A DNA stretch of 56,483 nucleotides from the NCBI GenBank assembly GCA_023382875.1, contig JAHDXH010000005.1, forward strand, positions 1 to 56,483, in the 5' to 3' direction. This DNA comes from Patescibacteria group bacterium (GTDB lineage: Bacteria; Patescibacteriota; Microgenomatia; UBA1400; PJMF01). The notes below the pieces were generated by a model. That model saw nothing but the letters and a program-made list of their open reading frames with translations. It made no database searches and had not been told where the DNA came from. A program made the position numbers and the translations under genes. Positions 28,494 through 36,544 of the stretch are shown one piece after another (the first letter of the stretch is position 1; every line of letters starts with the position of its first letter).

Positions 28494-28922
28494 TTAAATA
28501 CCAGCTTTTTTGGTTTTTTGAGCAACTTTAAGCTCGAGCATAGCCAGCTTAAGAGAAGCCTCTGCCATCATCAATTCGCGTTGATCTTCAGATTTGGCCA
28601 TAGTTTCTTGAGCTTCTTCAATAGCTTTTTGGACTTTTTCCATAGAAATGTCGCGAGCATAAATCGCCGAGTCAACCAAAACTGTCACTAAACCAGAAGG
28701 ATTAACGTCAACGAAACCCTTAGCAATAACCACATCTTGCTCATGACCATCTTGAGTAAAGCGTAAACTACCAGTCTCTACTTGAGAGAGGAGAGCAGCG
28801 TGATGAGGCAGAATAGTAATCTCACCCTCAGTGCTGGGCAAGGAAACCTTATCCACCACTTCTTCTAGGAGCTTTTTTTCCTGAGAAATAATGCGGAGAG
28901 TGAGTTTACTTTTTTCTGACAT
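28494..28922 (-). CDS. atpC: ATP synthase epsilon subunit
   Basis: EGEITILPHH beta-domain plus C-terminal helices; operon position. Confidence 0.92.
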   Translation of the reverse strand: MSEKSKLTLRIISQEKKLLEEVVDKVSLPSTEGEITILPHHAALLSQVETGSLRFTQDGHEQDVVIAKGFVDVNPSGLVTVLVDSAIYARDISMEKVQKAIEEAQETMAKSEDQRELMMAEASLKLAMLELKVAQKTKKAGI

Positions 28923-28938
28923 TAATTAAATTTCGAGT

Positions 28939-30342
<1,404 letters not shown>

Positions 30343-30362: not shown

Positions 30363-31232
30363 TTACACAGTTAAAGTTGCAGTCGCAATATCGAGAAGTT
30401 CACTAGTAATTGCAGACTGACGAGATTTATTAAAGACTAACTTCAATTCATCGACTAATTCATGAGCGTTTTCACTTGCATTCTTCATGGTCACCATACG
30501 AGCAGAGTGTTCACTAGCTCTTGATTCTAAGAAAGCTTGATAAATTGAGTTTTCAATATAAAAAGGCAACAAATTGGTCAAAATTTCTTTAGCACTAGGC
30601 TCAAATAAATAGTCAGCCTTTACCACCTTTTTTTGACCATCAGTCACTTCACCAACCACTTCTTCTTTGGCCATTGGCAAAAGTTCTGCCACTCTTGGTT
30701 TTTGCGACAAAGTGTTAATGAAATCCATATAAACTAGACCAACAGAGCGGAAATCTTGCTTTAAATAACCATCGATCACCATCTCACTAATCGCCACTAA
30801 GTCTGAAGTTGTAACTTTTTCGGCTATATCAGTAAATTGAGAATGAATTTTAAATCCACCTAAACGGCAAAAGTGCACAATCTTTTTTCCGACTGCCACA
30901 ATTTCACCATCGGGATGCAATTTTCTCCAGGCATCCATTTTTTTGAATAGTTGGGTGTTCAAACTACCGCACAAACCTTTGTTGGTACCAACGACCAACA
31001 AGATATCTTTACCTGTGAAATTACGAGAGAGCAGAGGATGCAATGATGGGTCAGCTTGTGCAGCGAGTTTCTGCAAAGAGTCCTGCAAAGCCAAAGCATA
31101 GTGACGAGCTAAAATAGCTTGATCCTGAGCTTTTTTCATTTTGCTGGCAGCTACCATTTCCATTGCCTTAGTGATCTTGGAAATGTTAGAAGCAGCGCTG
31201 ATGCGGCGTTTGATTTGTCTAGCGTTAGCCAT
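30363..31232 (-). CDS. atpG: ATP synthase gamma subunit
   Basis: [34 protein letters not shown]. Confidence 0.97.
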
Positions 31233-32886
31233 TATTGTCTGAGTTTACTAAAGCACTGTTATTATTAAATTCCTTAACTGCAGCTTCAAGTTCGGCTTCA
31301 GTGGTTTCGATAATTTTAGCTTCCTTAGTGATACTCTCCAAAATAGCCGCATGCTCATCGCGCATGAAATCTAGATAAGCAACTTCCCATTCTTTAATAT
31401 TATTTGTATCAATTTTGTCTAAGTGGCCTCTGACGGCTGCAAAAATGATCACCACTTGTTCTGCAACAGATAAAGGAGTATCCCAACCTTGTTTCAAGAT
31501 GGCATTAACTCTTTCACCTCTTTCAAGTTGAGCTTTGGTTTTATCATCAAGATCAGAAGAAAATTGAGCGAAAGCTTCAAGCTCTCTAAATTGAGCCAAC
31601 TCCAATTTCATCGTACCAGCCACTTGCTTCATAGCTTTGAGCTGAGCAGCAGAACCGACACGAGACACTGATAAACCAACGTTAATAGCTGGTCTCATAC
31701 CTTTGTTGAACAAATCAGCTTCAAGATAAATCTGACCATCAGTGATAGAAATCACGTTGGTTGGAATATAAGCAGAAACGTCATTAGCTTGGGTTTCAAT
31801 GATTGGCAAAGCAGTAATAGAACCACCACCATGCTTTTCATTCAAACGACAGGCTCTTTCGAGTAAACGAGAGTGCAAGTAAAAAACGTCACCTGGATAA
31901 GCCTCACGACCAGAAGGTCTTCTCAGTAAAAGTGAAATTTCGCGGTAAGCTTGAGCATGTTTTGATAAGTCATCATAGACCACCAAAACGTCTTTGCCTT
32001 TACCCAAGAAATATTCAGCGATAGCGACACCAGCATAAGGTGCCAAAAATTGTTGAGCAGCAGTAGATGAAGCAGTAGCGGAAACGATCACAGTGTAATC
32101 CATAGCACCACGCTCTTCCAAGATACCTCTAGTTTGCGCCAAAGAAGAACCTTTTTGACCGATACAAACGTAAACACAAATTACGTCCTGACCTTTTTGG
32201 TTCAAAATTGTACCAAGCGCCACTGATGTTTTACCAGTTTGGCGGTCACCGATAATTAGCTCTCTTTGACCACGGCCGATTGGAATCATAGCGTCAATAG
32301 CTTTGATACCAGTTTGCATTGGTTGAGTCACTGATTGACGAGACATAACACCAGGCGCAACTCTCTCGAGAAGCATCATTTTGTCAGCCTTAATAGGTTC
32401 ACCACCATCGAGTGGAACACCTAAAGAGTCAACGGTACGACCAATAATTTTATCGGAAACTGGCAAAGATAAAATTGTGCCGGTTCTTCTGACAATAGAA
32501 CCAGCGTGAAGATGTTCAGCGCTATCTAATGCCACAATACCAATGTCTTTTTTATCTAGGTTTAAAGCTAAACCCTTTTTGCCATTACCTAAGTCAATTA
32601 ATTCTCCAGCTTGAACATCATCAAGACCTTCAACTTTGGCAATACCATCACCAAAGGTAGTGACAAAACCGACTGATTCTTTGGTCAAGTCTTTACCTTC
32701 AATTTTTGCTCTCAAAGTAGCGTCAAGCATTTCTGAACCAACTTGAATGGATAAACCACCTAAAACTGATTCATCAATCTTTTCTACAAATTGCAGATCA
32801 GAACCATATTTTTTAATGGCAGCTTTTTTGATTTTTTCCAGTTGACCACTTGAAAGTTGGCTGGCTGAAGTAATTTTGACTAACAT
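31225..32886 (-). CDS. atpA: ATP synthase alpha subunit with N-terminal fused delta C-terminal domain
   Basis: [27 protein letters not shown]; first ~63 aa (ITSA..L...[13 protein letters not shown]...LD.TL) match the delta/OSCP C-terminal domain. Confidence 0.93.
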
Positions 32887-32893
32887 AGGTTAT

Positions 32894-33379
32894 TTAAATT
32901 GCCTTAAGCAATGATTCCAATTCAGTATCAATTAAGGCAGCGTGCTTCTTAGCATCGAGTGACTTACCGATAACTTTTTCTGCGGTAGCCAAAACTCGAG
33001 ATTCGAATTCTGCTTTAATTTGAGCTTCTTGTTTCTTTTGAGTTTTTTGCCAATCAGAAACCATTTTTTCGATTTCTGCTTGAGCTTTTTCGCGAGCTTC
33101 AGCTAACAATTCTTTTTCTTTGTCTTTTGCTTTTTGTTTAGCTTCTTCGATTAAATCAGCTGCTTTTTGGTCAGTAGCTTTTTTAACTTTTGCTTTGTAA
33201 GCTTCGATTTGTTCTTTTTCTAACAAAGTTTCACCAGCAGCTTTCTGAGCATCGGCGATTCTTTGTGCTCTTTGATCAAGAATTTTAGTAATTGGTTTAA
33301 TTAACAAGAAGGTTAATGCACCAAAAACAACGAAAAAGTTGATTGCCTGAAAAAGGATTTGTGCGATTTGGATTTCCAT
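32894..33379 (-). CDS. atpF: ATP synthase b subunit
   Basis: QAINF TM helix, KPI..LDQR, long coiled coil. Confidence 0.9.
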   Translation of the reverse strand: MEIQIAQILFQAINFFVVFGALTFLLIKPITKILDQRAQRIADAQKAAGETLLEKEQIEAYKAKVKKATDQKAADLIEEAKQKAKDKEKELLAEAREKAQAEIEKMVSDWQKTQKKQEAQIKAEFESRVLATAEKVIGKSLDAKKHAALIDTELESLLKAI

Positions 33380-33401: not shown

Positions 33402-33617
33402 TTAAACGAACTTGATAATTAAAGCCACGACCAATGAGTAAATAGCGATAGCTTCAGCGAAAGCCATACCCAAAATCATATTGGTTTGGATGGTACTAGC
33501 AGCTTCTGGGTTACGACCGATTGCTTTCAAAGCAGCGGCAACGATGACACCAATTGCTAAAGCTGGGACTGCACCACCTAAGGCCATTGTTAAACCGACA
33601 CTAAGTGAATCTGACAT
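33402..33617 (-). CDS. atpE: ATP synthase c subunit (H+-type)
   Basis: RNPE loop; conserved Glu in AFAEAIAIY without the Na+-type Ser/Thr. Confidence 0.95.
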   Translation of the reverse strand: MSDSLSVGLTMALGGAVPALAIGVIVAAALKAIGRNPEAASTIQTNMILGMAFAEAIAIYSLVVALIIKFV

Positions 33618-33659: not shown

Positions 33660-34604
33660 TTAATGCTCGTCATGGCTAATGGTAGCCATATTGAAAAATA
33701 CTAAACTGAGCATCGAGAAAACGAGAGCTTGAATAAAGCCAACAAAGATTTCCAAGCCGTAAAATGGCATTGGAGCGATAACTGGCACTAAGAATAAGAT
33801 AACAGCCAACAAAACTTCGCCTGCAAAAACGTTGCCAAATAAACGGAAAGCGAAAGACATAATCTTAGCCAATTCCAAAACCAATTCTAAAATTCCCACA
33901 AAGAACATAATTGGACTAGAGAAATTAAAGAATTTTTTCAAATAACCAAATTTCAAATATTTGAAACCAAAGAGTTGGGTAACAAAAACGGAAATAGCAG
34001 CTAAAGCAATAGCAGTATTAAGGTCGGCGGTACCAGCTCTGAATAATGGAATAAAGGTTTTACCATGAGCTTTTTCACCAGTGGCAGCTTCCTCTGAGTG
34101 AGTTTCTCCTGCAGTTGCAGCTTCCTCAACATGTGTTTCATCACCAACAACTTCTAGGGTCTCAACATGATCAGTAGTTTCAATCACTTCGACAGTTGGT
34201 TCAACTTCACTTGCCTTGACTTCAATTGAAGGTAAGCGAGCTTCTTTTGGTTCATGGGTTAAACCAATGGTACCAACGCCAGGTAATAAGCCCAACCAAT
34301 TATTAAGTAAAATCCATAAGAAAAAACTAGCGATGAACGGCAAGAAAACTTTGGTTTTTTTGCTATTGTGAGTCACAGAGTTAGTGAACTCATAAAGCAT
34401 CTCCACAATCATCTCTGAAAAATTTTGGAAGGCACCTGGCCTTCCAAAAACATCGCGAGTATTGAGTTTCTTCTTTGCAATAAGTGCAAAAAGAATAAGA
34501 ATAGCGCTGACAATAAGAGAAGTTAAAATTGAGTTCGAAATCGGGATGTTAGCAAAATAGGAAATAGTTTCTGCTGAAATTGAGATGTGTGGTCCTGAGG
34601 ACAT
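33660..34604 (-). CDS. atpB: ATP synthase a subunit
   Basis: NNWLGLLP, TADLN, SFAFRLFGN, IQALVF. Confidence 0.95.
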   Translation of the reverse strand: MSSGPHISISAETISYFANIPISNSILTSLIVSAILILFALIAKKKLNTRDVFGRPGAFQNFSEMIVEMLYEFTNSVTHNSKKTKVFLPFIASFFLWILLNNWLGLLPGVGTIGLTHEPKEARLPSIEVKASEVEPTVEVIETTDHVETLEVVGDETHVEEAATAGETHSEEAATGEKAHGKTFIPLFRAGTADLNTAIALAAISVFVTQLFGFKYLKFGYLKKFFNFSSPIMFFVGILELVLELAKIMSFAFRLFGNVFAGEVLLAVILFLVPVIAPMPFYGLEIFVGFIQALVFSMLSLVFFNMATISHDEH

Positions 34605-34702: not shown

Positions 34703-36544
34703 TTATTTGTTGAGAACCAAAACAGCATCATAGCTGCCTTTTAAATCTTCGGTTTTAATCTCGCTTGAGTAGGTAAAAGCGAGATCGGTGGCCTCTTCCA
34801 CCAAGGTTAGTAATTGTGAGTTTTCCTCAGCCATTAGTAAGTAATTGCCCGCTTCGTAATCACCGCGAGCGTTTCCAGTATCTACGTCAACAAAATCAGC
34901 ATCAGTCAACATTTTTTTAATCGAGCTAGCGTAACCAGCTTTTGAGGTAGCATTGACAACCAAAACACTTAATTCACTAACTTTTAATTGAGCTGCTGGT
35001 GAAGCAGTGGGAGCTGGATTTTCCACCACTGGGCTTGGCGAGACAGTAGTCGTAGCCACTGGAGTAGGGGAAGGTGCACTTTGTTCAGAAACGGTCAAAT
35101 AACTAATTCCCAAACCAACGCCAATACCTACAGTCAAGAAAAAGACCGCCACTGACACAAAAATCATTTTCAACATGGAATTAACTCCGGTTTTATTCTT
35201 AATCACCGGCTTATCATTTTTGACGGTTTTACTAACAATTGGTTCAGCAGTTTTTGGTTCGTTCACAATTGGTTTTTCATCAGCTTCCTTTACAGCAAAG
35301 CGACTTAAAGCTTCATTAGGATCTGATTTTTCACTATCTTCGTTTTTCTCAACTGGTGCTGCAGCTTTTTCTGCAACGTTTTTGGGCGGAAAAAGGTTGT
35401 CATCCTGCATATTTTCTAATATATCATCAGCTGGCTCTTCTGTCTTGTTTGTATCGTTTACATCGTTTGACTCTTCTGGAAGTTGAGCTAGATTGATTTT
35501 TCTCTCTACATCCTCTTGTGCAATGGGCACAAGCTCTACCTCTGTACCAATAACTCTAGGGGTACTAGGAGCTGGCAAAGGTTCATTTACTTCATCCTCC
35601 CCAACCTCATCCTTGGCTGGTGCTGGTTTTTTTATCTCATCTTGGTCTTCTTCATCCCCATCTTTGGTCAACGGCTCAACTGCCACCAGTAAATCCTCAT
35701 CAACTTTTTCGATATTAAAGGCTGGAACATTAAATTCTGGTACCGCTAAGGTCTTAGCTCCTGCTTCAATAATCTGCCTGACGTAGGGAGGTACTTCTGG
35801 ATTTTCTTCACTAAAATTGGTCAATTGTTGAGTGGGTAAAGTTTTGTTGAGTAGTTCTTCAATTTTTTTCTCAACTAATTCATTAGTGAGAAGATACATG
35901 GTCTGAATGCTTGGCTCAGCACCACGCAAAGTTTTGACCGTTTCGGCAATTTTCTCCACATCAACAACCTCTGCACTTGTAGCCTGATCAACACCAATGT
36001 AATGCTGAACTAAGTACAAGTTTTCTCCCATTTGAACCAAACTTAGCGATGGTTCAAGAGAAATCAAAGCCTTAATAGTCCAACTTAAAGAAACCACTTT
36101 GGAGATTTTGATATCGTTTTTAGTAGCAGCATCGTAAATTGGCGCCAACAATGATCTTTCGATCGCGCTTAGCTGAACATTGGATTTTTCACCATATTGT
36201 GTCAAAACAAAGTGGTGAAGCTGGTGGGTTTTGGGTGTTAAACCCAAAGAAGGGAATAATTCTTCAGTGATTTGTTTATCTATTTTAGTTTTGGCTTTTT
36301 CACCAATTTCCAAAATAGTGTTAGTAAAGAAAAAATCTGGCAAAACCAGAACATATTCTTCTTTATCAAGTTTAGCAAATAGCTTTTGAATGTTTTCTAC
36401 AATAAAAACATCGTTATTTAAATACTCGCCGTTAATTTGTCTGAAGTTTTGTAAAGCAAAATCGCCTTGTTTTTTGGCTGGCAAAAGCTCAGTCACGTAA
36501 GCAACATCAGAGAAAATATAGAGTAGCTTCTTGGAATCGAGCAT
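34703..36544 (-). CDS. membrane protein with C-terminal LytR_C domain
   Basis: N-terminal globular domain, acidic linker, one TM, PT linker, VLVVNAT..AGYA...GNA LytR_C motif. Confidence 0.75.
   Translation of the reverse strand: MLDSKKLLYIFSDVAYVTELLPAKKQGDFALQNFRQINGEYLNNDVFIVENIQKLFAKLDKEEYVLVLPDFFFTNTILEIGEKAKTKIDKQITEELFPSLGLTPKTHQLHHFVLTQYGEKSNVQLSAIERSLLAPIYDAATKNDIKISKVVSLSWTIKALISLEPSLSLVQMGENLYLVQHYIGVDQATSAEVVDVEKIAETVKTLRGAEPSIQTMYLLTNELVEKKIEELLNKTLPTQQLTNFSEENPEVPPYVRQIIEAGAKTLAVPEFNVPAFNIEKVDEDLLVAVEPLTKDGDEEDQDEIKKPAPAKDEVGEDEVNEPLPAPSTPRVIGTEVELVPIAQEDVERKINLAQLPEESNDVNDTNKTEEPADDILENMQDDNLFPPKNVAEKAAAPVEKNEDSEKSDPNEALSRFAVKEADEKPIVNEPKTAEPIVSKTVKNDKPVIKNKTGVNSMLKMIFVSVAVFFLTVGIGVGLGISYLTVSEQSAPSPTPVATTTVSPSPVVENPAPTASPAAQLKVSELSVLVVNATSKAGYASSIKKMLTDADFVDVDTGNARGDYEAGNYLLMAEENSQLLTLVEEATDLAFTYSSEIKTEDLKGSYDAVLVLNK

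Follow-up and report, generated by a model that had tools for sequence, protein, structure and literature searches.

The window considered here is positions 1-56,483 of contig JAHDXH010000005.1 (assembly GCA_023382875.1) of a Patescibacteria group bacterium belonging to the candidate phyla radiation (CPR), whose source genome is labelled G000, and the element of interest is a gene that joins part of the delta subunit of an F-type ATP synthase to the alpha subunit. ORFs (open reading frames) and Pfam matches define a complete F-type operon on the minus strand, in the order atpB, atpE, atpF, a fused ORF of 553 aa, atpG, atpD, and atpC. The fused delta-alpha ORF (31225-32886, minus strand, as are all features of the operon) is open over 553 codons; its ATG lies at 32886 and the atpF stop codon ends at 32894, so that a gap of 7 nt separates the two genes. 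Residues 1-63 (32698..32886) constitute a delta/OSCP C-terminal domain, as identified by the Pfam OSCP profile, AlphaFold2 (AF2) modeling, Foldseek, and the ratio of non-synonymous to synonymous substitution rates (dN/dS). Residues 64-71 (EGKDLTKE; 32674..32697) form a junction that replaces the end of the last helix of delta and the alpha N-helix, and 31225..32673 encode F1 alpha proper, comprising the beta-barrel, nucleotide-binding, and C-terminal domains and the stop codon (PF02874, PF00006, PF00306, TIGR00962).

The N-terminal helical domain of delta (delta-N) caps the alpha3beta3 axis and the alpha N-helix binds delta; in solved enzymes this helix packs with the delta C-terminal domain (delta-C) and with b. 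In the fused protein, positions 105-166 of the 172 in the OSCP profile match residues 3-63 (E 2e-11, 44.7 bits against a cut-off of 22.3), ATP-synt_ab_N lies at residues 72-136, and ATP-synt_ab and then ATP-synt_ab_C come after it. The NCBIfam atpA model TIGR00962 scores 743 bits (cut-off 484.45), with residues 65-544 corresponding to model positions 20-501, and no alpha N-helix (model positions 1-19) is found in the protein, the match beginning at position 20. Nor does the delta N-terminal helical bundle (OSCP ~1-104) have any Pfam match in the fused protein or, at E<=10, anywhere in the genome. Alignment of fused with free forms places delta-C and the 8-residue junction where the alpha N-helix would otherwise stand. 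A first-pass annotation of the window had described a delta C-domain of about 63 aa, starting 7 nt after atpF and running in frame into the alpha barrel, with delta-N and the alpha N-helix both missing, and had called for a hidden Markov model scan of OSCP/delta against ATP-synt_ab_N. Pfam and TIGR00962 bear out this description in full, as both profiles are matched within one chain and OSCP 1-104 and alpha model positions 1-19 are left unmatched.

Predicted structure agrees with this domain make-up. A full-length AF2 model built from 66 aligned sequences has a mean predicted local distance difference test score (pLDDT) of 79.6, and within it residues 1-62 form four strands and two helices (pLDDT 82-90), followed by the junction (pLDDT 74). 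Comparison of the full-length model with solved alpha chains gives VIA-align Z-scores of 47-49; a structure search with that model retrieved alpha alone, and the delta part needed a separate fold. When residues 1-70 were folded alone (mean pLDDT 72.4), Foldseek ranks 1-44 were exclusively delta/OSCP chains, with template-modeling (TM) scores on the query of 0.67-0.82 and root-mean-square deviations (rmsd) of 1.2-2.8 Å, and these include delta of E. coli, PS3, and Chloroflexus as well as an engineered fusion chain, 9jc1_I. The same engineered chain is the best PDB sequence match to residues 1-140 (E 5e-18).

Authenticity of the fused gene

An in-frame fusion in a single metagenomic contig invites the suspicion of an assembly or sequencing artefact, or of a pseudogene. 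The search for relatives of residues 1-140 among 5.8 billion clustered proteins speaks against this: of 195 matches, 120 were listed, and among these at least 21 clusters of 550-553 aa carry both OSCP and alpha domains, with identities over the N-terminal region of between 58% and 100%. The 21 clusters stem from NCBI, JGI, ENA, and Logan, on contigs of up to 1.05 Mb, and one bears the name Candidatus Pacebacteria bacterium. When residues 1-66 alone served as the query, 15 of 15 matches fell in this same-architecture set. Continuity of the junction, for which the first-pass annotation had proposed a check across 32690-32710, is likewise upheld: positions 32300-33300 are unbroken, with 0 gaps, in contigs (rather than raw reads) of four runs from four studies, namely wastewater, freshwater, sludge, and lake water, the wastewater run being possibly the source of this DNA. 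Substitutions across this interval number 0, 5, 5, and 34, and in the most distant run (X7) 30 of the 33 listed differences are synonymous, including all five in codons 1-66, the delta part. Relative to G001, a genome of the same genus, dN/dS is 0.14 for the delta part (with dS saturated at 1.6), 0.89 for the 8-codon junction, 0.29 for the barrel, and 0.08 for the rest of alpha. Independent assemblies thus agree without indels on an architecture common to 21 clusters, the 553 codons are open, and the differences are mostly synonymous; no point was found in favor of an artefact or pseudogene, an explanation that we regard as extremely improbable.

The fusion also appears to be the only source of delta in the cell. 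A six-frame OSCP search (E<=10) of the source genome (1.008 Mb in 29 contigs, 96.87% complete) returned no delta besides the fusion itself, so that the earlier claim that no separate atpH exists holds both in the operon and genome-wide at this completeness. An OSCP match that extended upstream of the ATG to positions 85-104 was rejected as noise, since it reads through two TAA codons and shares its stretch with atpF, which lies in another frame. Subunit a is encoded by a single gene in the genome, and subunit b by a single match above the cut-off. As a separate observation, a third ATP-synt_ab match lies elsewhere in the source genome (G000:C3:31562-32194), in a 464-aa frame with E 4e-30. The fused gene is therefore genuine and conserved, and is part of the only F1Fo ATP synthase in this Pacebacteria-like CPR bacterium; that the real fusion also serves as the stator attachment is very probable.

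Forms of delta among relatives and the origin of the fusion

The fusion can be placed against a comparison set of 41 related genomes, an order sample of 131 genomes, and a class sample of 301 genomes. In the 41 related genomes the operon runs a-c-b-delta-alpha, and the variable part is delta. It occurs as a protein of 113-136 aa with a partial N-domain in distant relatives within the order, as one of 95-103 aa, as a C-domain-only protein of 65-82 aa that is common in relatives, as a protein of 128-146 aa with two C-domains in tandem, and fused to alpha (G000, G001, G004, G029, G036). OSCP matches were found in 105 of the 131 genomes of the order sample, five of them in alpha-sized frames (G000, G029, G360, G343, G036), and in 192 of the 301 genomes of the class sample. 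Among the 150 class-sample matches listed (92 further matches were not), nearly all occupy frames of ~75-160 aa and begin no earlier than OSCP position 44; this tally includes one unpublished genome, G106, on which no claim rests. As judged from these matches, the usual delta in this CPR order and class is short or reduced to the C-domain. A survey of CPR for the same fusion, suggested by the first-pass annotation, was thus rewarded with further fused forms (G001, G004, G029, G036, G343, G360). The 136-aa delta of G011 had no significant PDB sequence match, and the partial N-domains are therefore not linked to delta-N of Chloroflexus.

Tandem deltas were observed at L025:792-1226 (G002), L026:812-1240 (G014), L022:764-1201 (G017), L018:718-1158 (G009), and L032:3057-3440 (G010). 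Those of G002, G014, G017, and G010 each contain two OSCP stretches, and that of G009 was assigned by ORF size; the two halves in G010 are nearly identical, which indicates a recent duplication. A deltaC-deltaC protein of this sort might bridge a pair of alpha sites or a pair of stalks; the main text of a survey preprint of October 2026 (10.64898/2026.10.01.756066) that treats delta fusions never uses the word “tandem”. A second F1-like alpha, divergent at 33-37% identity and adjacent to a weak delta-C-like match, is also present in several relatives, G000 not among them (G014:C3:42207-43731, G015:C9:37731-39323, G002:C17:109847-111341, G027:C37, G030:C17, G003:C10, G040:C57). In some genomes of the order, a second OSCP match covering positions 15-171, hence a full-length delta, lies in a frame of ~200 aa (G032:C2:76859-77338, G030:C14:34493-34966, G339:C15, G344:C9, and others), and in G030 an alpha of 41-42% identity is found close by on the same contig. 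These matches suggest a second, ordinary F-ATPase in the genomes with a full-length delta.

Because relatives carry short or C-domain-only free deltas, the loss of delta-N long predates the fusion. In the alignment, each fusion, that of G360 included, stops a few residues into the last helix of delta and resumes 8-18 residues later in the barrel. Five fused lineages with differing junctions (G000/G001, G004, G029, G036/G343, and G360) all lack the alpha N-helix, whereas the GDG motif is preceded by 31-59 residues in 27 of 27 measured non-fused alphas; one more alpha, the 28th, from G009, has no GDG match and likewise retains an N-terminal segment. These lineages were placed on a maximum-likelihood tree of alpha (41 rows, 508 columns after removal of those of delta, LG+G4, quick search), whose groups were named after the tree was seen and which leaves G360, of a further family, outside. 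Fused rows fall in four places: the G000 clade adjoins G012, which has a C-domain-only delta, G004 adjoins G015 and G003 (support 97), G029 adjoins G025 (support 97), and G036 stands alone. A constraint that unites every fused row lowers the log-likelihood by 219 units (p-AU 1e-143), and placing G004 with the G000 clade is tolerated (p 0.08). From these placements and constraint tests, with G360 in addition, the fusion is counted as having arisen at least three times independently, and probably five. Two rows of the tree, P0026 (named Vitreimonas sp.) and P0066 (Pseudomonadales), fall inside the CPR family; their bins may be mislabelled, and P0113 is consequently the only outgroup.

As judged from relatives, the route to such a gene would start from an ancestor that already possessed a free, C-domain-only delta. 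A single in-frame deletion spanning the stop codon of atpH and the start of atpA would then have removed ~10 residues of the last helix of delta together with the ~25-residue alpha N-helix. The first-pass annotation had held that the two parts that bind each other were lost and replaced by a covalent link. As a description of the architecture this stands; as a single joint event it does not, the loss of delta-N being ancestral and the fusion later.

Known delta-alpha fusions and the Chloroflexus-type Fo

A delta-alpha fusion has been made by design. In the enzyme of Bacillus PS3, residues 2-104 of delta were deleted and residues 105-178 were joined to alpha via a short linker (Ueno et al., Nat Commun 2025; PMC12229609). 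The resulting enzyme bears as many as three b2 stalks, with one a-subunit per stalk, and on average about twice the wild-type content of a and b; its H+/ATP ratio is 5.8 rather than 3.0, and it makes ATP at about half the proton-motive force, from which its authors concluded that delta-N on the threefold axis restricts the enzyme to one stalk (PMC12229609). Like the engineered chain (PDB 9JC1), the natural one lacks the equivalent of delta 2-104, carries delta-C in frame on the alpha N-terminus, and is accompanied by no free delta; its delta-C model superposes on 9jc1_I with a Foldseek TM of 0.77 and an rmsd of 1.5 Å. However, in the engineered chain (580 aa) the short linker is followed by the complete alpha N-terminal region, whereas the natural chain (553 aa) is without the alpha N-helix and without the end of the last helix of delta. 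Relative to canonical bacterial delta and mitochondrial OSCP (PF00213), the C-terminal domain is alike in sequence and fold, and the N-terminal helical domain is absent. In the mycobacterial system, delta is joined to b, is present once per enzyme, and keeps its N-domain. That b-delta protein (e.g., PDB 7jg5_d) is also a stator fusion involving delta, and is among the Foldseek matches of the present delta-C (TM 0.80).

Natural fusions have also reached print. The Discussion of the PS3 paper names delta-alpha fusions without delta-N in Acidaminococcus fermentans and in two UniProt entries, G4Q3K6 and A0A1I2C5T3 (PMC12229609), and the 2026 preprint surveys delta-alpha and b-delta fusions and short CPR deltas and proposes extra stalks (10.64898/2026.10.01.756066). 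As in those reported there, delta or its C-terminal part precedes alpha, and a multi-stalk enzyme has been proposed for them. The main texts of both works name no CPR delta-alpha fusion, although supplementary figures may include CPR examples, and they name neither a recurrent origin nor the loss of the alpha N-helix. Our literature search found natural delta-alpha fusions in these two sources only, and nothing relevant on CPR atpH or on a solved natural fused enzyme.

A profile search of 1.84 billion representative proteins gave 11,629 matches at E<=0.001, and 33 of the best 150 cover delta-C and the barrel without interruption. Pfam analysis of 20 hand-picked matches recovered the helix-less type described here, a type with a spacer of 27-35 residues, and full-length delta-alpha proteins, along with b-deltaC-alpha triple fusions and deltas with three OSCP stretches. 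Few of these carry source names (Erysipelotrichaceae, Ruminococcus, Clostridium, Candidatus Collierbacteria), and two of the 20 (P0237, P0241) look chimeric. Two metagenomic chains, P0253 (751 aa) and P0268 (557 aa, a fragment), combine ATP-synt_B, delta-C, and a full alpha, for which a chimeric gene call is possible. Four others (P0122, 364 aa; P0125, 412 aa; P0152, 360 aa; P0174, 349 aa), attributed to Clostridium species in their source records, consist of a full delta with extra C-domain copies, giving two or three OSCP stretches. ESM Atlas clusters with OSCP and alpha barrel (scores 0.82-0.89) are a lead only. The delta-alpha fusion is thus already known as a kind. The new elements are its occurrence in CPR, its repeated emergence inside a single order, always with loss of the alpha N-helix, its Chloroflexus-type Fo, and the graded series of delta forms.

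This Fo was recognized from the genes upstream of the fusion. In the F1Fo of Chloroflexus aurantiacus, delta-N is shortened and the stalk and the a-subunit are each present twice (PNAS 2025, PMC12002316; PDB 9ITJ-9IU0), and the chains of this enzyme are the best solved relatives of all three Fo subunits encoded here: subunit a (atpB, 314 aa, 33660..34604, ATP-synt_A) with 9itj_T (E 2e-62, 214 bits, the runner-up scoring 76.6 bits), subunit b (atpF, 161 aa, 32894..33379, ATP-synt_B) with 9itj_U (E 1.6e-13), and subunit c (atpE, 71 aa, 33402..33617, ATP-synt_C) with 9itj_H (E 1.1e-13). Chloroflexus delta-C likewise has the highest identity (37%) among the Foldseek matches of the natural delta-C. 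Chloroflexus, however, keeps a free delta, whose four-helix N-domain dimerizes and joins the two stalks (PMC12002316), whereas the fused enzyme has delta-C on alpha and its genome encodes no delta N-domain. Subunit a further contains a long acidic insert (residues ~117-185; 34050-34256) after GLLPGVGTIG, at the very site of the unique aH3-aH4 insert of Chloroflexus, which follows GLLPGVG(T/S)IG; the Chloroflexus pair Cys135-Cys173 is missing here, there being no Cys in the a-subunit linker. Among relatives this linker measures 24-25 aa or 54-100 aa, and the long form tracks clade, not fusion. The C-terminus of b is conserved between fused and unfused relatives.

The remaining genes of the operon encode gamma (atpG, 30363..31232; Pfam ATP-synt, E 3.7e-85), beta (atpD, 28939..30336; PF00006 and PF02874), and epsilon with its C-terminal helical domain (atpC, 28494..28922; ATP-synt_DE_N and ATP-synt_DE). 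Directly upstream of atpB lies a 613-aa ORF (34703-36544, minus strand) with a weak LytR_C match (E 8e-4, below the cut-off), and ORFs that share the conserved C-terminal ending of this one lie ahead of atpB in many relatives.

Stalk number and its consequences

The number of peripheral stalks and a-subunits sets the protons used per ATP in an F-type ATP synthase, and to our knowledge stalk number was held fixed at one until 2025. Taken together, the present data allow a model for this enzyme, drawn from the PS3 and Chloroflexus precedents, in which each alpha3beta3 head would show three equivalent delta-C docking sites and no delta N-domain would occupy the threefold axis. By analogy, with three identical sites and the axis left empty, there should be room for more than one stalk; the complex could then take further b2 stalks, each with its own a-subunit, and these would raise H+/ATP and permit work at low proton-motive force. 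The possible change in stator stoichiometry that the first-pass annotation had proposed has strong outside support in the engineered PS3 enzyme. On this analogy, we lean slightly toward the native enzyme having more than one stalk, and the account as a whole (a genuine fusion, an origin by deletion, and a capacity for several stalks) seems somewhat likelier to be right than wrong.

Several points weigh against this account. Stalk number is not readable from sequence. The alpha N-helix was kept in the engineered enzyme and is lost in the natural fusion, so that the geometry of b binding may differ. Particles of the engineered enzyme themselves vary, bearing between one and three stalks with a mean of two (PMC12229609), and selection on the delta part would be expected even if only one of its three copies were used. 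The N-terminus of G036 aligns with delta-C at 16.1 bits, below the Pfam cut-off. Finally, the insert in subunit a was considered as a marker of multi-stalk enzymes and rejected, as the fused forms of G029 and G036 have the short loop.

The chief alternative is that the fusion is real and the enzyme single-stalked: one delta-C would bind b2-a and two would stay empty, the fusion being neutral or gene-saving under genome reduction after delta-N was lost. The small genome (~1 Mb) and tight gene spacing would suit such a history, as would the sporadic occurrence of the fusion (5 of 131 genomes in the order sample) and the apparently equal success of close relatives with free C-domain deltas, and single-stalk particles occur even in the engineered enzyme (PMC12229609). 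However, removal of delta-N and fusion of delta-C sufficed in PS3, with no other modification, for the assembly of extra stalks and a-subunits (PMC12229609), and nothing seen in the operon restricts a and b to one unit; we give this alternative roughly one chance in three. It is also conceivable that the N-terminal module no longer docks b, being a remnant or having another role such as assembly or crown capping, with the stator held otherwise, as the lost alpha N-helix and the lost end of the last delta helix alter the canonical three-part contact. Yet the module is under purifying selection and keeps the delta-C fold, no other sequence resembling delta was found in the genome, the C-terminus of b is conserved, and the same module was fused independently several times, all of which makes this quite unlikely.

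If the multi-stalk model is correct, its physiological sense may lie in the energetics of the cell. Genome searches for subunits of complex I or of Mrp-type antiporters, for cytochrome bd oxidase, and for H+-pyrophosphatase found none, and we speculate that a cell whose proton-motive force is low would profit from high H+/ATP gearing. The assumption of one stalk has been overturned by the engineered PS3 enzyme and the Chloroflexus structure, and the present operon offers a compact, single-copy natural candidate for a delta-alpha fused enzyme, which can readily be compared with close relatives bearing free, tandem, and fused delta-C; the absence of the alpha N-helix in nature, in turn, probes which contacts are truly required. 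A bolder and distinctly tentative extension is that the whole CPR order, perhaps the class, runs multi-stator F-type ATP synthases, in three solutions reached after the loss of delta-N: free, tandem, and fused delta-C. Free C-domain deltas could then sit on each alpha N-helix, tandem deltaC-deltaC proteins could tie two sites, and each of the fusions, at least three to five in number, would have discarded a now-useless alpha N-helix. Were this true, these bacteria would hold a natural series tuning H+/ATP in cells without a respiratory chain, sharing its ancestry with the two-stalk enzyme of Chloroflexus.

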